The translations under genes were made by a program, and so were the position numbers. The notes beneath the pieces were generated by a model that saw only the letters and a list, made by a program, of their open reading frames with translations, had not been told where the DNA came from and searched no databases. A stretch of 64,000 nt of DNA from a virus, in IMG/VR virus record IMGVR_UViG_3300023174_006147, positions 1-64,000 of that record; one strand, written 5' to 3'. Numbering within the stretch: position 1 is the stretch's first letter; every line of letters starts with the position of its first letter. Below are positions 5,259 to 56,294 of the stretch, piece by piece.

Positions 5259-6110
5259 TTACCAAGTGTTTTTTGTAATTATAACAGCTTTTTCACCATT
5301 TCTGATCAAGAAATGGTCTTCTATTTTATGAATTTCATAGTTGCCTAAATACTTATTCAGGTATAATACTTGATTTTGACTCTGTTCGTCAAGTTGAATA
5401 GCACCTGAAAGTTCATTTTTTAATATGGCATATTCTCCAATTGCAACTACGTTTGCTGTCAATCGTCCAGCATATGGCTTGTTAAAAGAGATATTCCTAT
5501 TTTCGTCGATTTCAACGGAATCAATTGCTCCTTGGTTAAAAAACTCGCCAATTTCAGAAACATCCGAATTTTTAGTTGCGGTGTTATATTTTTCCGGTGT
5601 TAACGGTACATATTTGGCAAATGTTTCCCTGTCAAAATCGTGACCAACTGCGTCCTTGTACCAACGAAATCGCCAGTTATCAATATCACATAGTTCTGAT
5701 ATTCCATTTAGTAATTCTGATACATGCTTGTCAGCATCATCATTTCTTTCTATTTCTACAAAAACACTATATGCACCATTTTTCTCTTCTCCTGAGCTTA
5801 TGTCAGAATCCAATACAAATGCATATCCCTTTTCAATGAACTCCATCAAATCAATTGCAGGTTCTTTGTTAAATGCGTGAAACTTTAAAACAATAGTGTC
5901 TTCGTCGTTTCCCATTTTACTCTGATATTGATCTACCGTAAAAATTCGATTGATCGCATCGCTGAGGTCTCCTGCATGAAGGCCTTCGGATAAATTAGGA
6001 ACTTTGTGCTGGGAGTTCATTTGAGACTGGTTCATTGGGTAGAGCTTCCTGTGCTGCTTCATTTGGATTGATTGCTTCATTTTTGTCAATGTCGATATGA
6101 TCTTTGACAT
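5259..6110 (-). CDS. hypothetical phage protein
   Basis: long ORF; real start probably downstream of the annotated one. Confidence 0.55.
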   Translation of the reverse strand: MSKIISTLTKMKQSIQMKQHRKLYPMNQSQMNSQHKVPNLSEGLHAGDLSDAINRIFTVDQYQSKMGNDEDTIVLKFHAFNKEPAIDLMEFIEKGYAFVLDSDISSGEEKNGAYSVFVEIERNDDADKHVSELLNGISELCDIDNWRFRWYKDAVGHDFDRETFAKYVPLTPEKYNTATKNSDVSEIGEFFNQGAIDSVEIDENRNISFNKPYAGRLTANVVAIGEYAILKNELSGAIQLDEQSQNQVLYLNKYLGNYEIHKIEDHFLIRNGEKAVIITKNTW

Positions 6111-11681: not shown

Positions 11682-11708
11682 GATGTTATTTATCTCAATT
11701 TTTAACAG

Positions 11709-38198: not shown

Positions 38199-39617
38199 TT
38201 AGATATCGTAACGAGGATTCATGATGGCCTTCATCATAATTCCAGTAGGAGTAAACTCCTGCATATCAGCAGCAAGCAGTGCCTTGACAATGCTTGGGCT
38301 GAAACCGCTCACGAGTGCAGCACCCGACTTGTCTGCTTTCACCGGAACGTTATCACTAGCGTTCAGGTTCCAGAAGACAACCTGCGGAACAGTATAACCT
38401 GCTTCTGCGTACTTACGTTCGATCATCTGAATTGCAGTGTCGTCGTAGTTACTGCAACAATTAAACTGCATGTCCGAGAGGATAAGCAGCATTTCAGGCA
38501 TTTCACCCTGAGGTACACCGTTCTTGACTGCAACATCAAGGATCTTGTTGAATGCAGCGTGTAGGTTAGTACTCATGCCCCATTCGCTCTTGGCCATCTG
38601 TGCAGCCTTTTCAACAACATTGCCCTTGAGAGTAACTAGTTGAGGACTGGAACTGAAAGTAAGGAAAGTGTCCTTGAACTTGCCAGTGTTCTTGTCCGCA
38701 AGATAGAGACCCAGTGAAACTGCAACGTCAAGGCAAGTAACCTCACTCTTAGAAGAGCTACCACCTGCACGACAAGTCATAGAACCCGAAACATCAACAA
38801 GTGGAAGAATGTTTGCATCCCCAACATAGTTAGGAAGTGCATTCCACTGTGCCACAACGTGATCAAGCTCAGTCTTACCCAGCGAAGGACCATAGTGACG
38901 AATGACGCCCTTAAGAACATCATACGGATATACTGCACCAGCGTTGACCTTGGCAGTAGGATCACCCTTTACCAGCTTGGCAACGTACTCAGCAAACTTA
39001 GGAGTATTGCGAGTAAATGCCTTCTTGTAGCGCGAAGCTGCAAGACTAGGAACATGGTTAAAGTTGATGTTGTCCCAATCCTTAGCACACATCTGAGTTT
39101 CAACAACCTTGGTCAGGTTAACCAGAGTCTTACGATACTGCTTAGGGCTCATACCAAGTGCAGATCGAAGTTCTGCTGCCACTGCGCCCTTGCGAGGCAT
39201 CCACTTGGCGCAAAGACCATTGCCACTGGCAAGTGCTTCTGCGATCAGTGCGTATGCTTCGGTCTTGAGATCGATGGTTTCAAAGACGAGTAGATCGTCC
39301 CATCGGCCAATTTCTGGTACCTTTGCAAGAAGTGCCTTTGCTGCATCGGGGTCAGTCTTTTCCAGCTGAACAAGGATGTCACGGAAAATCTTACGTTCGC
39401 CTGCACCGCCACGAGCGTCACGCGCCCACTGTGCAACGCGCAGTGCAATTTCTCGATTTTCCACGAATGCACCAGTAAAGGCAGGGACGATATTCTTGCC
39501 ACGGCTCGCGCCAATTGCAAAGAAAAGGTCAACGTTCTTGGACGCTGACGACTTAAGAGCCCGCATGCCGTTAGTGGTACGAGCTTCCTGGTTTGCTACT
39601 GCTTCTACAAAATTCAT
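38199..39617 (-). CDS. Ro60/TROVE-like DUF2828 protein with C-terminal vWA domain
   Basis: TTNG, RDARGGAGER, GRWDDL, AKWMPR, MIDAS DVSGSM, SDMQF, VFWNL, SGFS. Confidence 0.8.
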   Translation of the reverse strand: MNFVEAVANQEARTTNGMRALKSSASKNVDLFFAIGASRGKNIVPAFTGAFVENREIALRVAQWARDARGGAGERKIFRDILVQLEKTDPDAAKALLAKVPEIGRWDDLLVFETIDLKTEAYALIAEALASGNGLCAKWMPRKGAVAAELRSALGMSPKQYRKTLVNLTKVVETQMCAKDWDNINFNHVPSLAASRYKKAFTRNTPKFAEYVAKLVKGDPTAKVNAGAVYPYDVLKGVIRHYGPSLGKTELDHVVAQWNALPNYVGDANILPLVDVSGSMTCRAGGSSSKSEVTCLDVAVSLGLYLADKNTGKFKDTFLTFSSSPQLVTLKGNVVEKAAQMAKSEWGMSTNLHAAFNKILDVAVKNGVPQGEMPEMLLILSDMQFNCCSNYDDTAIQMIERKYAEAGYTVPQVVFWNLNASDNVPVKADKSGAALVSGFSPSIVKALLAADMQEFTPTGIMMKAIMNPRYDI

Positions 39618-49000: not shown

Positions 49001-49666
49001 TTATTCAAATTTTTTTATAATTCTTCCTTTATTCCAGCCAGGTGGAATAATATCTGTTTTTTTAATTTTTTTATTTACGTGACCATTCGTGATCCAAATA
49101 GATCCAAATTGAGAATTGTTTTTGCCCTTATTTTTTGATTTTCGAAGTTTTGCTAAAGTTTCTTCTGAATGCTTTTTACCAAAAAATGGATTACCACTTC
49201 CTGCATTTCTTTTCTTTGCAGCCAAGGAACGAGCTTCGCGATTTCTTTTTGCCCATTCTCCGTTTTCTTCTTTAAGTTTTTTTTGAGTATCTCTGCCTCT
49301 TTTTAGAGCATCTATAAAAATGAGCCGATATTCTGTAATTTTCATAGTGTTTTCGGTTCCGTTTCTGATATCCGACTTGTTTATATGACCAAATCCTCCT
49401 TGACCTCCAACACATAAGTTATATGTGTCGTCCCGATCACAAAATTCCTCCGTCACTAATTCTTTCTCTTTAACATTCATCTCGAATTCAGAATCAAATA
49501 TATATAATAGCTCTTTTTTAAAATTTTCTATTCCGTACTTTTTAATCGCAGCTTTTAATAATTTCCCGGATCCCATATACTCGTCATCTAGGTTCATAGT
49601 CTGATGCTTGCCTATGTAAATTTTATTATTGATTATATTTGTTATTTGATATATCGTGTAAAACAT
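49001..49666 (-). mobile_element. GIY-YIG Seg-like homing endonuclease with NUMOD3
   Basis: IYQITN..NKIYIG..YMGSG, NPFFGKKHSEET; between the two tRNA-Gln genes. Confidence 0.85.
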
Positions 49667-49782: not shown

Positions 49783-50262
49783 TTATTTTTCTTGCCTTGA
49801 GGAAAAAACTTCTATTGCGGCTAGAATGTGTTCATCCCGCAGGCCTTCACCGTCTTCAATATACACTAGCCGTTTAGATTCAGTAAACTTTCTGTCATCA
49901 AAGCAAACCCAATCGCATTCACCATTGTCAGCGATCCACTGATTAATGGCAATTAATCTACCAATACCACGAACAGTGCTTGTCACATCTGTATAATCAA
50001 TGTTTGGAAAAATTGTTCTCCAATCATTGTGAAAATGTGTTGGATCAATCCCCCAATGTATTAAATCTTCTTTTAAAGTTTTTCCATAGGGCAAGTGATA
50101 ATTGTGCATTGAGTTGGTTACAATTTTTGCACCAGACTCAATGCACAGATCATTGAGCAATTGAATTGAAACTTTATTACAAGCTAACCGCAGTTCAGAT
50201 ACCATGACTGGAGAACTTACATTAATTATTGGACCATCAATATCTAAAAATATTATTCTCAT
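49783..50262 (-). CDS. HAD phosphatase, Swiss-army-knife RNA-repair type (HAD_SAK_2-like)
   Basis: IFLDIDG...VCFDD...GL. Confidence 0.7.
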   Translation of the reverse strand: MRIIFLDIDGPIINVSSPVMVSELRLACNKVSIQLLNDLCIESGAKIVTNSMHNYHLPYGKTLKEDLIHWGIDPTHFHNDWRTIFPNIDYTDVTSTVRGIGRLIAINQWIADNGECDWVCFDDRKFTESKRLVYIEDGEGLRDEHILAAIEVFSSRQEK

Positions 50263-51140
50263 CTTTTAATTAATTCTTCTGTTAAGTCTATAAAACGAGA
50301 AAAGTCATGTAGCTTGTTCTTCCAATCATCAGGAATTCCAGTCAGTCCATAAAATGCACCAGCAATTTGTCCTGTGACAGCGCCAACAGTATCAGCATCG
50401 TCCCCGAGGTTAACTGCCTGCAAGATAGCATCCTTAAAGTTATCCGTGTGATACACGCACCATAGGGCAGCATGAAGAGTATGGATAACATATCCAGACG
50501 AAGAAACATATTCGCGGCTAACTTCAAGTGAAGTGAGAATGTTCTTTACATCTTCTACCCAATGATCTTTAGCAGTTACATTAAAAATCCGACTCTTTTC
50601 AGTGGTGTAGATTGCATTAAGTAACACTTCCGCCATAAGTTCACATGAATGCAAACAAGCAGGTGAAGCATGAGTTGTCTCACTCTGCACGAGTGCAGTT
50701 GCCTTTGCCTTTTCTTCGTCATCGTAATGCGCAAGTACTGCTGGACTAAGTCGCATAATTGAACCATTGCCTGCGCCGAAGAAATCTGGATTATTTTTAG
50801 TTTCACCGGTTTTTTTAAAGTTAGAAATTGCAGTGCGAGTAGTGTTGCCAATATCAAAGCACCGGCCAGTAGACGAGTTTGCACCGTTATAATACCAGTC
50901 TGCAAAGCGATTAAGAAGATCGGTTTTATCAAGGTCTCGATTAGAAACTAGACTATCTGCAAGGCAAAGTGCCATACTAGTATCGTCAGTCCAATAACCT
51001 ACAGGAAGATTGAACGGTCCACCACCAAGCATGTCAGTAACCGGTTCAAAAGTATCACGATCTCTAAATTCTACAGTGGTACCAATGGCATCACCCACAG
51101 CAAGCCCAATAAATGCTCCAGCTAATTTGTCTTTTAACAT
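50259..51140 (-). CDS. ADP-ribosylglycohydrolase (DraG/ARH family)
   Basis: GDAIG, WTDDT, GNGSIMR, GDDADT. Confidence 0.92.
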   Translation of the reverse strand: MLKDKLAGAFIGLAVGDAIGTTVEFRDRDTFEPVTDMLGGGPFNLPVGYWTDDTSMALCLADSLVSNRDLDKTDLLNRFADWYYNGANSSTGRCFDIGNTTRTAISNFKKTGETKNNPDFFGAGNGSIMRLSPAVLAHYDDEEKAKATALVQSETTHASPACLHSCELMAEVLLNAIYTTEKSRIFNVTAKDHWVEDVKNILTSLEVSREYVSSSGYVIHTLHAALWCVYHTDNFKDAILQAVNLGDDADTVGAVTGQIAGAFYGLTGIPDDWKNKLHDFSRFIDLTEELIKR

Positions 51141-51172
51141 GATAACTCCTAGTGTAAAAAAATATTATAACA

Positions 51173-53728
51173 CTAGAATGAATTGCTGTCAACTATCTCC
51201 ATGCCAAGATTTGCTATATAAGCCATTAACTCTTCAATCTCTTGACTGGTTGGATTTAATGTGCCAATAGCTTGATCTAATTGATCAACAGTTATTTTAT
51301 TTGACCGTGCTGCACTCTTAATCAATTGTTGAACAGCAGGTAAATCTCCCAATGGTGTTTTTTTCTTAGCAATATCCTGTATTGGAAAATCTAAAAGTTG
51401 CAATTGTTTGAACCCAATATACTTGGTAGAGCCATCTGAAAAGGTTACATCTGCGATTTTCATTATATTGCCTACATTAGCTATCTTACCAGTTTTGCCG
51501 GCAGCAGGCCCATCAATAACTTTAACAGAATCGCCTTGTTTAAACGAATGGACAGGTATTACTTCAGGTTCAGAAGTTTTAATTTTTTCAATTTCATTAG
51601 GATAAAGAAATGTCTTATCATCAGAATCGTCTAATTTTACTATAACATTGCCACTTTTTTGAATCTGAGTTATTGTGCCAGTTTTTCCTGTATTGTGCGT
51701 TCCTATGATTTTTACCTTATCGCCCTCTGAATATTGTTTAGGTGTTTTTACTTCTGGCTCTGGTTCCCACTTGAGATTGTCTAAGTTCAAATCTGGATCA
51801 TTTTTATCGGGGTTATCAAGTTTTTTAACAGTGAATGTATCATCACCGTATTCGTCTATAGCCTGATCATATTCATTCTGAGTGAGGAATTGTCCCTGAT
51901 AAAGCGGTGTAAGTCCTGGCATAGTAACTTCATAAGCAGCATCTATTAAATTAGGATTTTCAGCTTCGGCTTTAATCTTTTCAATATTTTTTAAGGGAAC
52001 ATCGATGGCAACCTTATTATCAAATTCTACATCAACTAGTGGCTTTGTAGAATAAGCGTATGATACTTCACCAGTTTTACCGGTGTATTTATGATTACCG
52101 ATGATCATAACCTTATCACCGTTTTTAACATCACCAATTTCTAGAGACTTTGGAGCAGCGCCGACTTTTTCAAGACTTGCCAAAGGAACATCATACAATT
52201 TTTTACCGTTGTCCAATTCTAATGTAGTATCTTTAAAAGAATCATGTACATCGGTAACAGTAGCGATATCACCTGCGTTAGAATGCTTGCCAATAATTTT
52301 TACTTTATCGCCTTTTTTAATTTTATCATTGTCAGTTTTTGTATCTAGTATTTTAACTTGGTGTGGCTTAAGAAGACCGTACTCGCCACCCTTGAAGAAT
52401 ATCTCGATGTTACCAGAAGTATACATGTGGGATATAGTTCCAGATTGACCATAGTATGCACTTTTAGTGTCAATAACTTCAACTAAATCACCATATTTAG
52501 GATCAGGAGTTTCTGAATCAGCTTCACTTTCGTGTTTAATATCTTTAATCTTGAAGTCGTTGGTCCAATTTTCACCATCCAACTTCACTGATACTTCGTC
52601 ATAATTGGTGTAAACATACTGTACTTCACCGGACAGCCCGTAATAGTGATTACCCTTGGATTTAACAGTAACACGGTCACCAATTTCATATTTTCCAGGT
52701 GTAATGATTTTAGGCTTGCCTTCGGGATAAACTTGTAGTTCTAGAAACTTCATGATATTTTTCATGAGACTTTCTTGAACAGCATAATATGCACCACGAA
52801 TAAAGACTTCATTTCCAGAAGCAATAGCCCCCGTCAGATCTTCTTGATCTAAATCAAATCCTTTGACTATTCCTTCAGGAGTCATGATGTTTTCAAGCTC
52901 AGTTAAAGGCATGAATTCTTTTGGGATGTCACCTGCTTCAATAGCTTTTTTAATTGAGTTAAGATTGTATTCTAGATTATATTCCCCAAAGAGATTATTA
53001 AAGATAAAATCATATTTTGCTCCTAGTTTTTCTCGATTGGTTAACACGAAATCTTTTAAAGGAGCAAGTAGTTCGTAGTCCAACATTTTTGGATAGGATC
53101 CTCTATCTAAAATTAAATCCTTGGTGTTTCGACTCCAGCTAAATGAAAATCCATCTTTGGGAAACATTACATATACTTTGCCATATCCCGAAGCCTGACT
53201 TTTATCACCTGATACGAATGATGAATTATCTCTTCTTGCTTCGAATCCAGCTGCTTCCATGCCTTTGTTAAAAATATCACTAAGGCGTGAACTACTGCTC
53301 ATTACACGGCGCTCATCAAATGGTTTACCATAGAGAGCATCTTCAGTGGACTTGATGCCGCGATAAAATACTTTGGCTTCAGAAGTTTTAAAATCTGGAT
53401 TTAAATCAGTATAAACTTTGACGATTTCTGTACAATTTTTTGCAATCCTCGTCATTAAATTATAAAATTGGATTGGAAGATTATTCTTTTCACTTTTAAG
53501 ATTTGACTTCTGTTGTTTTAGGGAATCAATTTCTGCATAGAGTCCCTGCTTCATTTTTTCATATTCAGCAGCAACTGAATCAGGCACTTTCATATTATTT
53601 GCAAGGGCCGCGCTTTCTTCATAATCAGTGATTTTCTTCAGCAGTTTTTCTAGTTTTGGCAAGTTAAGGGACATTCCCTTGCGCTCACCCGGCTTCAGTT
53701 CGGATTTAAAGATTTCTATAATTCTCAT
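51173..53728 (-). CDS. putative ADP-ribosyltransferase with KOW repeats, RpoC-like insert and C-terminal sigma70 region 1.1-like domain
   Basis: FYRG / SFVS / NEV triad; about 7 GDxV.I.G...G..G KOW repeats; MRIIEIF leader. Confidence 0.6.
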   Translation of the reverse strand: MRIIEIFKSELKPGERKGMSLNLPKLEKLLKKITDYEESAALANNMKVPDSVAAEYEKMKQGLYAEIDSLKQQKSNLKSEKNNLPIQFYNLMTRIAKNCTEIVKVYTDLNPDFKTSEAKVFYRGIKSTEDALYGKPFDERRVMSSSSRLSDIFNKGMEAAGFEARRDNSSFVSGDKSQASGYGKVYVMFPKDGFSFSWSRNTKDLILDRGSYPKMLDYELLAPLKDFVLTNREKLGAKYDFIFNNLFGEYNLEYNLNSIKKAIEAGDIPKEFMPLTELENIMTPEGIVKGFDLDQEDLTGAIASGNEVFIRGAYYAVQESLMKNIMKFLELQVYPEGKPKIITPGKYEIGDRVTVKSKGNHYYGLSGEVQYVYTNYDEVSVKLDGENWTNDFKIKDIKHESEADSETPDPKYGDLVEVIDTKSAYYGQSGTISHMYTSGNIEIFFKGGEYGLLKPHQVKILDTKTDNDKIKKGDKVKIIGKHSNAGDIATVTDVHDSFKDTTLELDNGKKLYDVPLASLEKVGAAPKSLEIGDVKNGDKVMIIGNHKYTGKTGEVSYAYSTKPLVDVEFDNKVAIDVPLKNIEKIKAEAENPNLIDAAYEVTMPGLTPLYQGQFLTQNEYDQAIDEYGDDTFTVKKLDNPDKNDPDLNLDNLKWEPEPEVKTPKQYSEGDKVKIIGTHNTGKTGTITQIQKSGNVIVKLDDSDDKTFLYPNEIEKIKTSEPEVIPVHSFKQGDSVKVIDGPAAGKTGKIANVGNIMKIADVTFSDGSTKYIGFKQLQLLDFPIQDIAKKKTPLGDLPAVQQLIKSAARSNKITVDQLDQAIGTLNPTSQEIEELMAYIANLGMEIVDSNSF

Positions 53729-53731
53729 AAA

Positions 53732-53745
53732 CATATTTATAAATA
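53732..53745. promoter_or_regulatory. palindromic bidirectional late promoter
   Basis: atatttataaatat gives TATAAATA on both strands, 5-6 nt before two divergent ATGs. Confidence 0.7.
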
Positions 53746-53751
53746 TATATT

Positions 53752-54507
53752 ATGAAAATAAAAGATCTTTTAAATGAAACCGCCATACAAGAGGGTCCGT
53801 ATGATCCTCACATTTTTAAAGCAGTTTTTATGGCCGGAGCACCAGGTGCTGGTAAAACAACTACCGCTAAAAAGCTACTCTCTGGTACAGGTCTAAGACA
53901 CCTCAATGTTGATGATTTTTATAATCTTATGAGACATAAAGGACGCGCTAGTGGCGATCAAAACAAGGATTACGAAGCATCTTGGAAAACGTATCGCGGC
54001 CTAGAAGAATTACTTCGTCAAGGTCGAATTGGTTTAATCATTGATGGTACTGCGAAGAATCCAGAAAAGATGGCTGATGTTAAAGCAGACCTAGAAGAAA
54101 TGGGTTATGAGACTGCAATGATTTTCGTTAACTCATCATTAGAAACAAGTCTCAAAAGAGCTACTGAACGTTCACAACGTCCTGGTCCAGACTTTGGAAG
54201 AGTAACTTCACCAAAACATATTGAAGATACCTGGAATAAGGTGCAAAAGGGAATAGGTTCATTACAGAACTTATTTGGAGCAAGGTTCTTTGTTATCGAT
54301 GCTGAACGTCCCGATGCCAACATTAACTATGTTGACAAGAGTATTAGATCTTGGCTTAACACGCCAGTTAAAACACAGGCAGCACGACAGTGGTTATCTG
54401 ATCCTAAAGCTGCACAAAAGCAAACAAGCACAAAGCCAGCAAAAGATGAACCTGCACAAACAACAGGTCAACGCCCTGCTGAACCGGAAACTCCCAAAGA
54501 AGTATAA
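53752..54507 (+). CDS. P-loop kinase (zeta-toxin/AAA_33-like) with MKIKDLL leader
   Basis: GAPGAGKT, NVDD, IIDGT. Confidence 0.7.
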   Translation: MKIKDLLNETAIQEGPYDPHIFKAVFMAGAPGAGKTTTAKKLLSGTGLRHLNVDDFYNLMRHKGRASGDQNKDYEASWKTYRGLEELLRQGRIGLIIDGTAKNPEKMADVKADLEEMGYETAMIFVNSSLETSLKRATERSQRPGPDFGRVTSPKHIEDTWNKVQKGIGSLQNLFGARFFVIDAERPDANINYVDKSIRSWLNTPVKTQAARQWLSDPKAAQKQTSTKPAKDEPAQTTGQRPAEPETPKEV

Positions 54508-54510
54508 AAA

Positions 54511-54612
54511 CAGGATTGTGTTTTTTGGACGGGATTTGAACCCGCTCAGTTTGCGTTGAAAGCAAATGCTCTACCATTGAGCTACCATAAGGTTTTTTGC
54601 TGAAACAATCCT
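54511..54612 (-). ncRNA. scaffold RNA A4 (D + anticodon UCA + T arms, no acceptor stem)
   Basis: AGGATTG-TTT-CAGCA...TAGCTCAATGGTAGAGC-TTTGC TTTCAAC GCAAA-CGGGTTCAAATCCCG...CAATCCTG. Confidence 0.75.
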
Positions 54613-55643: not shown

Positions 55644-56294
55644 TTATAGTTCAACAGTTTTTGAAATACCAGTTTGAATTGACTTATAAACATTTGTTCT
55701 TGTTGCCATCAACGGCAACAACGTATGGCGAACAAAGTTTCTGTCATACTTCTCAACGATATTAGTACTATCTTCGTTCCATATCAACTTAAAATGCAAT
55801 GCTTGATTGACAATAGTTTCTTTATCAACTTCTAAAAATGGCTTATAACGATAAAAACCATTTACCATAGTTAAAGGTCGCATTGTTAGACTATGATGCG
55901 GATCACCACGCATAAGCCTAATGAGTACATTTTCAACTTGATCATCTGCGTGATGTGCAGTCATGATATAGGTGAATCCGCGATTCCTTGCAATTTCTTC
56001 AATAAACTGCCATCTTGCCGTTCTAGCATCGACTTCATTTGAGTCTTTGGTAAGAGGACTAGTTTTATTTGTCCATAGAACTAGATTATGTTTTTGCGCA
56101 TATTCTGAAATCAAGTAGAAGTCTTTACACGAGTCTTCTCTCATATTGTGATCATAATGAACAATTTCAATGTAAACAGCACTTTTTACCAAAAAGTCTA
56201 ACAAGAAAATTGAATCAACTCCGCCTGAAACGCAGACAAGATATTTGTCGGCAGTAAACTCAATTTGTTTACGAATCTTACGCCAAGCGGTCAT
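55644..56294 (-). CDS. tilS: tRNA(Ile)-lysidine synthetase, minimal form
   Basis: SGGVDS, DHNMR, TAHHADDQ.E, EDSTN, RNFVR. Confidence 0.88.
   Translation of the reverse strand: MTAWRKIRKQIEFTADKYLVCVSGGVDSIFLLDFLVKSAVYIEIVHYDHNMREDSCKDFYLISEYAQKHNLVLWTNKTSPLTKDSNEVDARTARWQFIEEIARNRGFTYIMTAHHADDQVENVLIRLMRGDPHHSLTMRPLTMVNGFYRYKPFLEVDKETIVNQALHFKLIWNEDSTNIVEKYDRNFVRHTLLPLMATRTNVYKSIQTGISKTVEL

Follow-up and report, generated by a model that had tools for sequence, protein, structure and literature searches.

How does a phage enzyme that modifies the host RNA polymerase find its target? Retuning of this polymerase by phage ADP-ribosyltransferases (ARTs) is a classic theme, and target finding is the part of it that is poorly understood. 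The question is raised by a minus-strand gene at positions 51173-53734 of a 64,000-nucleotide stretch of viral DNA (positions 1 to 64,000 of IMG/VR record IMGVR_UViG_3300023174_006147; hereafter the window). In its product the presumed targeting part is legible in the sequence itself, being made of transcription-machinery components that can be recognised, one of them copied from a domain of a core subunit: the C-terminal 500 residues hold six KOW repeats, a copy of the clamp-toe of the RNA polymerase beta' subunit and a sigma-70 region 1.1 copy. The N-terminal domain probably has an ART-like fold, and the next gene downstream encodes a hydrolase of the ADP-ribosylarginine type. We give a probability of about 50% to the reading that the gene encodes an ADP-ribosylating effector that is aimed at RNA polymerase and comes with an eraser of its own. 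Coordinates of all features are collected in Table 1.

Transcription-machinery modules in the C-terminal 500 residues

When the whole protein was compared with all PDB sequences by phmmer, the Caulobacter beta' subunit ranked first (7ye1_D, E = 1e-5), with query residues 576-637 aligned to beta' residues 128-181. Five more beta' subunits were matched at the same position (those of Francisella and Vibrio and the RNA polymerase entries 6j9e, 7xya and 7f0r), the Vibrio alignment stopping at residue 179. This part of beta' is the clamp-toe, a small acidic globular protrusion made up in E. coli of residues 144-179 (144/145-179; 10.1101/726851; PMC8113463). The clamp-toe binds Crl (10.1101/726851); during promoter escape and closed-complex formation it also binds the sigma-70 non-conserved region, on that region's basic face (PMC7822876; PMC8113463). 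Since the copy starts and stops at the clamp-toe borders, we conclude that a discrete domain was captured and not a random piece of the subunit. Residues 598-637 around the copy carry a net charge of -7.

A scan of species genomes (tblastn) returned 40 rpoC loci, from Opitutae, with 57-70% identity over 37 residues; by this identity and the 1e-5 match, the segment is a homolog of E. coli beta' residues ~144-179. As the scan demands an exact 8-residue word, its Opitutae-only outcome is biased: within it the copy appears closest to Opitutae rpoC, while its PGLTPL stretch looks more Caulobacter-like. A word-based homolog search with the beta' insert as the only query found just near-relatives of the same protein.

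Sigma-70 region 1.1, an acidic helical domain at the N-terminus of primary sigma factors, sits in the DNA channel of the holoenzyme. The Pfam model of this region, Sigma70_r1_1, fell 1.6 bits short of its cut-off when run on the protein itself (20.9 bits against 22.5, E = 3.6e-4). A profile built from seven orthologous C-termini gave a list headed by primary sigma factors: it matched Caulobacter RpoD residues 26-77 at 6e-8, the Thermotoga region 1.1 structure 2k6x at 5.6e-7, C. difficile SigA at 7.7e-5 and E. coli sigma-70 residues 18-58 at 2.3e-3. Furthermore, the extreme C-terminus of a 1,694-residue homolog (P0043, 34% N-domain identity) scored 24.2 bits with Sigma70_r1_1, above the cut-off. 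Taken together, the ortholog profile and this homolog place the C-terminus in the region 1.1 family. The same profile matched one of five Opitutae genomes, at 1.9e-4, and the Caulobacter match was better; in sequence the copy seems more like its Caulobacter counterparts.

KOW domains are SH3-like barrels with the motif G-x-x-V-x-[IV]-x-x-G-x-x-x-G. The repeats of this protein carry a GD.V.I...G..G core at residues 352, 415, 475, 539, 671 and 734. A profile of all six matched Spt5 best (6.7e-8), followed by archaeal Spt5/NusG, uL24 and S4e, and the Pfam model KOW4_SPT5 scored above its cut-off (31.9 bits against 27, E = 1.2e-7), which places the repeats in the KOW family. They end in DVPL..(I/L)EK(I/V) (window 51974-52009 and 52163-52195), and one such tail, DVPLKNIEKI, weakly resembles the beta' sequence DMPLKDIERV/LDMPLKDIERV just before the clamp-toe. 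Because the segment is also a normal KOW-repeat tail, the likeness may be coincidence; as far as the sequence tells, it could reflect chance or mark the seam where the insert was acquired. The acidic linker that precedes repeat 5 contains a motif, L.WEPEPEV, that is conserved across subfamilies, orthologs without the beta' insert included, and at times occurs twice per protein (alignment columns ~1200-1215 and 1440-1460). Judging by its conservation it may be a docking peptide.

The first-pass annotation of this DNA had described a protein assembled from host transcription-machinery parts, with a segment at about 51830-51935 resembling the RpoC clamp and a last ~55 residues following the sigma-70 region 1.1 pattern. 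All of this is borne out by significant matches for KOW, beta' and region 1.1, the core of the beta' likeness falling on 51818-51934. The KOW identity also holds, whereas the count of about seven repeats is to be corrected to six.

The mosaic reading frame is not an assembly chimera, as can be concluded from its recurrence in independent metagenomes and from a bridging contig. The locus (window 50200-54600) was found at 90-100% identity in several independent freshwater or lake metagenome studies (runs X2, X3, X6 and X11), and a 2,637-base contig from an independent freshwater study spans window 50487-53123 with zero differences, joining the hydrolase gene, the sigma-like end, the KOW repeats, the beta' insert and the N-terminal domain. 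The window comes from an 84-kb IMG/VR virus record whose estimated completeness is 22% of the genome, and the identical protein was also found on a 334-kb contig; the record is therefore a jumbo-phage fragment.

The N-terminal domain

AlphaFold models were obtained for residues 1-345 (predicted local distance difference test score, pLDDT, 92.6) and 88-345 (pLDDT 91.7). With the whole domain, VIA-align hits were dominated by generic helical hairpins matching residues 24-87; since this hairpin swamped the search, the core was re-modelled alone. Every match that then spanned the core was an ART-fold protein; solved ARTs share a split beta-sandwich core that binds NAD. These were Arr (Z 5.4 over 84 residues, root-mean-square deviation (rmsd) 3.3; the entry title names Arr with rifampicin), which we take to be the rifampin ADP-ribosyltransferase, a PE-like toxin (Z 3.7, 115 residues, rmsd 4.2; its catalytic domain, as read from the aligned chain range), OspC3 (Z 2.5, 111 residues, rmsd 4.4), presumably also of ART-like fold, and two further proteins. 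One of them, BC2332 (2aua; Z 6.5, 126 residues, rmsd 4.0), is placed in the SCOP ADP-ribosylation superfamily d.166.1.6 (PMC3000352) and has a diphtheria-toxin-like site (PMC3024214); the other, AcrIF11 (6kyf; Z 3.2, 92 residues, rmsd 7.8), is an ART (10.1101/2024.08.26.609590). In the BFVD library of viral structures the 30 best matches were unnamed or generically named phage proteins, which we took as members of the same family, and the first named family after them was ART-PolyVal (several proteins, E 8e-3 to 0.7). The ESM Atlas gave DUF2441 and DUF3841 as sub-0.9 leads only, and these were set aside.

Family alignments of 37 and 43 sequences show which residues of this core are conserved. 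R125, R142, S147, R168, N170 and E309 are invariant, and S171, F173 and G185 are conserved at 90% or more; in the core model the conserved residues lie on strands in the order R...S...E. Between strand 4 and the strand bearing E309 the model contains a helical insertion of ~80 residues, which would take the place of the ARTT (ADP-ribosylating turn-turn) target-recognition loop of classical ARTs. The motifs that the first-pass annotation had quoted as an R-S-E type ART pattern are thus conserved positions of the family, whereas no ART profile matches them. Because ART sequence profiles give no match, the ART assignment is made at the level of the fold only; the low-Z fold matches, the conserved R, S and E positions and the strictly syntenic Tri1/DraG-type hydrolase support it indirectly. 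We consider it likely that the fold is ART-like, and we lean, with less assurance, towards the domain being a putative active transferase using nicotinamide adenine dinucleotide (NAD).

A conserved gene block with an ADP-ribosylarginine hydrolase

The gene directly downstream encodes an ADP-ribosylglycohydrolase that matches the NCBIfam families Tri1 (6.2e-99) and DraG (3.2e-56). Tri1 and DraG are partners of arginine-specific ARTs. The order kinase, ART-like gene, hydrolase was kept in all 11 KOW-bearing orthologous IMG/VR loci, which reach N-domain identities down to 33%; in each the hydrolase, as putative eraser, stands directly downstream of the putative writer, and a gene for a HAD phosphatase follows wherever an orthologous locus extends far enough to reveal it. 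This defines a four-gene block of freshwater giant phages: kinase, ART-like protein, ADP-ribosylarginine hydrolase and HAD phosphatase. The block lies inside an island of 40 tRNA genes on the minus strand (window 40366-63955), two of them called with a UCA anticodon. Fusion of the kinase to the N-domain family occurs in ortholog P0004 and in a 778-residue Zeta-toxin-domain protein of phage Atu_ph07 (MF403008.1 39484-41820), and probably in loci L062 and L064 too.

No beta'-type polymerase domain was found in a 93%-complete relative or in Atu_ph07, which fits the published dependence on the host polymerase of group 2.2 jumbo phages, which often encode ARTs (PMC7824862). Neither Rpb1_1 nor Sigma70_r2 matched in the 84-kb record (22% of the genome), and Sigma70_r2 found no match in the relatives, where gp55-like sigmas could still be present.

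A large unnamed family

At E <= 1e-3 the N-domain family comprises 1,428 representative clusters (50% identity) of unnamed phage proteins, many of which stand alone at ~320-350 residues; the domain also matches PHROG 11975, annotated without function. All 22 full-length relatives combine the N-domain with a KOW array, and 8 of the 22, plus more distant homologs, end in region 1.1. The layout of ART-like domain, KOW array and C-terminal region 1.1 recurs in orthologs down to 26-34% identity. Several Atu_ph07 proteins fall in the family by structure search (BFVD), while the 84-kb record (22% of the genome) holds no paralog of the N-domain. Adjoining the kinase-fusion gene of Atu_ph07 is a tandem run of ~13 consecutive genes of paralog size (MF403008.1 41844-53137; locus L066). 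They span 250-490 codons each, their annotation is hypothetical throughout, and several of them belong to the N-domain family by structure search. For this family, with its many paralogs in Atu_ph07-like jumbo phages, the present protein suggests a testable function.

A proposed mechanism and its rivals

If the polymerase-directed reading is right, the product would be an effector of modular build, used by a jumbo phage that relies on the host RNA polymerase. Its N-domain would be a very divergent R-S-E-type ADP-ribosyltransferase, with the large helical insert in place of a target-recognition loop. Tethering of this enzyme to RNA polymerase would be the task of the KOW array together with the region 1.1 copy. 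The acidic clamp-toe copy would mimic the surface where the primary sigma docks by its basic non-conserved region (and where, in enterobacteria, Crl docks too); through this mimicry it could bind or pull off the host sigma, competing for the proteins that dock on the real clamp-toe, the primary sigma first. The enzyme would ADP-ribosylate an arginine of the polymerase or of a bound factor, like T4 Alt and ModA, and the adjacent hydrolase would remove the mark, or protect the producing cell or late transcription, as Tri1 does for Tre1 and DraG for DraT. A fuller version may be called spare-part mimicry: the clamp-toe copy would trap the sigma non-conserved region or lever it off, with the region 1.1 copy acting as a plug of the DNA channel and the enzyme marking the polymerase. 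This version is tentative, and we would sooner bet against it than for it; were it true, the phage would possess a decoy-driven switch to its own transcription, with the cognate hydrolase resetting the system. Of the two roles that the first-pass annotation had offered for the captured domains, docking and bait, the data favour neither over the other. In any event the protein could serve as a probe for the in vivo binding partners of the clamp-toe and region 1.1.

Several results weigh against an RNA-polymerase-directed ADP-ribosylating effector. None of the ART families in Pfam and NCBIfam matched the protein or 37 family members at E <= 1, and Pfam gave the family members no common family; the N-domain alignment, used as a profile against the PDB, returned coiled-coil noise only; and hhalign comparisons with T4 ModA and ModB were not significant (probabilities 0.4% and 1.4%). 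A Foldseek comparison with the PDB gave no match at E <= 0.001, whether the model was that of the whole N-domain or that of the core, and the VIA-align Z-scores of the core, 6.5 and below, fall within what that program calls its "common" range. Of the profile matches on which the first-pass annotation had staked its claim, RpoC and region 1.1 gave significant ones and ART did not. In R-S-E ARTs (Alt/Mod, C3, Tre1, DraT) the Arg closes strand 1, a Ser-x-Ser/Thr lies on strand 2 and the catalytic Glu stands in an (E/Q)-x-E motif on strand 5. The first residue of this E/Q-x-E motif is absent here, its position being taken by G, N, K, S or H. The modules are also unevenly spread: the clamp-toe copy occurs only in the four closest orthologs (P0001, P0003, P0004 and P0005; in P0005, 46% identical, it is diverged yet intact), and the full-length relatives that do not end in region 1.1 end in one extra KOW instead. 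Because of this patchy distribution we regard the N-domain and KOW array as the family core and the other two modules as accessories, which, to judge from the sequences, are kept under selection in this lineage. Finally, the location in a tRNA island beside kinase and HAD genes also fits RNA repair, and the case as a whole is built on sequence and models.

RNA-end modification or tRNA repair is the main rival, because of the kinase-HAD pair and the tRNA island. Kinase and phosphatase would here form a split end-healing pair like T4 Pnkp, and the KOW array would bind RNA; the ART-fold domain would be 2'-phosphotransferase-like or would cap 5'-phosphate ends with ADP-ribose, and the hydrolase would recycle ADP-ribose products. 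The gene stands amid the 40 tRNA genes, the HAD gene belongs to the "Swiss Army Knife RNA repair" type, and the kinase, fused to the N-domain family in several phages, weakly matches a polynucleotide kinase PHROG (1.9e-8); no RNA ligase family, however, was found among the ~16 window open reading frames scanned. KptA-type ARTs are known from jumbo-phage RNA repair, but the conserved set here is R/S/E and not the H-H-h of KptA. While the best fold matches, BC2332 and Arr, lie outside the protein-arginine R-S-E group, the hydrolase is closest to the protein ADP-ribosylarginine hydrolases Tri1 and DraG, and no role in RNA repair is known for either region 1.1 or the beta' clamp-toe. We consider this account improbable.

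A shade more improbable is a non-catalytic role, in which the N-domain would be a paralogous packaging or scaffold domain rather than an ART, and the KOW, region 1.1 and clamp-toe modules would act as stoichiometric decoys, plugs or baits for polymerase-watching defences. A precedent is offered by T4 Srd and Srh, non-enzymatic proteins postulated to act as sigma decoys, and the N-domain without its ART profile match and the huge expansion of the family (the array of ~13 paralog-size genes in Atu_ph07 and several BFVD members) would suit such a role. It would leave aside, however, the ~10 polar residues that are invariant or nearly so, in an active-site-like placement, across 37-43 diverse members of the 1,428-cluster family, as well as the strict coupling to an ADP-ribosyl hydrolase. 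Least probable of the three is an ADP-ribosylating effector aimed at the translation apparatus, its KOW array mimicking uL24, S4e or the NusG-S10 contact (cf. T4 ModB on S1 and EF-Tu): the tRNA-island setting, the uL24 and S4e matches of the KOW profiles besides Spt5 and NusG, and the ribosomal targets listed in the T4 ModB annotation fit it, but the top KOW scores go to Spt5- and NusG-type domains and the two most specific modules, region 1.1 and the clamp-toe, are polymerase and sigma parts.

Start site, promoter-like boxes and flanking genes

From sequence comparison, translation probably starts at the third codon, the ATG at 53728, giving 851 residues that begin MRIIEIF..., since orthologs begin MRI... 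and a T4-late-type TATAAATA box overlaps the first ATG; ortholog P0002 is 851 residues long. The conserved PGERK just after the N-terminus is modelled by AlphaFold as a strand of the fold and not as a cleavable leader. The TATAAATA boxes of the palindrome TATTTATAAATA sit 4-6 nucleotides ahead of the ATG at 53728 and of the kinase ATG, and an ATAAATA followed 4-5 nucleotides on by an ATG is kept in orthologous loci L043-L050 (near 5970-6000). Further sites in the window with ATAAATA 4-6 nucleotides before an ATG are at 11687, 44697, 48177 and 59348, and products of genes with such a box begin M(R/K)I.E(L/I). This spacing suggests leaderless or near-leaderless late mRNAs. Over the whole window TATAAATA is not enriched (7 sites, 6 expected). 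The late-promoter-like TATAAATA box and the common MRIxE(I/L) N-terminus are hints only of late expression, packaging and injection. Short contigs from a lake metatranscriptome library overlap the gene, although such contigs do not demonstrate transcription.

The block is flanked by a PP-loop gene (ATP_bind_3, TilS-like; 55644-56294) and a GIY-YIG/NUMOD3 homing-endonuclease-like gene (49001-49666). Just upstream of the tRNA island, a gene at 38199-39617 encodes a 472-residue DUF2828 + DUF7788 protein.

Table 1. Coordinates of the gene, its modules and its neighbours. Positions are those of the window.
Feature	Position	Strand	Residues	Remarks
Whole open reading frame	51173-53734	-		853 codons, 853 residues
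Leader and long helical hairpin	53474-53734	-	1-23 (leader); 24-87 (hairpin)	conserved PGERKG in leader; AlphaFold model md6eb2de70cc1
ART-like alpha/beta core	52715-53473	-	88-340	AlphaFold model m423ce33866fc
FYRG	53360-53362 (R125)	-	R125	conserved column
NSSFVS	53207-53227	-	N170-S171	conserved columns
Helical insertion	52853-53092	-	~215-294	
NEVFIRG	52808-52810 (E309)	-	E309	conserved column
KOW repeats 1-4	51965-52702	-	345-402, 408-468, 469-528, 531-590	
Beta' clamp-toe copy	51818-51934	-	601-639	strongly similar core
Acidic linker	51749-51817	-		ends in conserved WEPEPEV (residues 656-662, 51749-51769)
KOW repeats 5-6	51371-51748	-	663-722, 726-788	
C-terminal sigma-70 region 1.1 homolog	51176-51352	-	795-853	net charge -5
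ADP-ribosylglycohydrolase	50259-51140	-		Tri1/DraG (ADP-ribosylarginine hydrolase) type; Pfam 5.8e-74
HAD phosphatase	49783-50262	-		HAD_SAK_2 ("Swiss Army Knife" RNA repair) type; Pfam 4.1e-9; overlaps end of hydrolase gene
Zeta-toxin/AAA_33 P-loop kinase	53752-54507	+		divergent; Pfam 6.4e-19
Palindrome TATTTATAAATA	53734-53745	both		back-to-back T4-late-type TATAAATA boxes

Comparison with known systems

The literature searched on jumbo phages and viral NAD/ADP-ribose systems makes no mention of KOW fusions, and in the literature searched neither the whole architecture nor a phage-borne copy of a core-subunit domain or of region 1.1 was found to be described. The nearest functional parallel lies in T4 Alt, ModA and ModB, phage mono-ADP-ribosyltransferases whose substrates are RNA polymerase alpha and other host proteins: there, as here, a phage that uses the host polymerase encodes an enzyme likely to ADP-ribosylate it, with the R...S...E order of conserved residues, and Alt too is a large multidomain protein with an ART at one end. 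The sequence relation to these enzymes is nevertheless undetectable (hhalign values above), the E-x-E motif is reduced to x-x-E in the present protein, and its N-terminal ART-like domain, its polymerase- and sigma-derived modules and the hydrolase gene that follows set it apart. Among structural neighbours of the core, BC2332, Arr and ART-PolyVal, which stand for minimal or divergent ART-fold families, are the best, but identity to them is 8-12%, the ~80-residue insert and the N-terminal hairpin are extra, and the catalytic residue set differs.

As in Tre1-Tri1 and DraT-DraG, a hydrolase gene of the same NCBIfam families lies next door, and its synteny is strict. Unlike Tri1, this hydrolase is without the N-terminal extension, covering profile positions 67-357 and scoring below the equivalog cut-off; the putative writer is unrelated in sequence to Tre1 and DraT, and the setting is a phage rather than type VI secretion or nitrogenase control. 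The elongation factor Spt5 likewise has a tandem KOW array, and its KOW domains are the best profile matches, whereas the phage protein is bacterial-viral, is without an NGN domain and has repeats that are close paralogs of one another.

Finally, phage proteins that resemble sigma parts to redirect the polymerase are represented by T4 Srd and Srh (host-sigma decoys as postulated in the T4 annotation), and the phage proteins T7 Gp2 and Ocr act alongside region 1.1 within the DNA channel of the polymerase. In contrast to all four, the copies described here are truly homologous to region 1.1 and to a domain of a core subunit, and they are fused to a putative enzyme and a KOW array. The fusion looks like a possible novel viral means of directing an enzyme to the host's transcription machinery, or of decoying that machinery.

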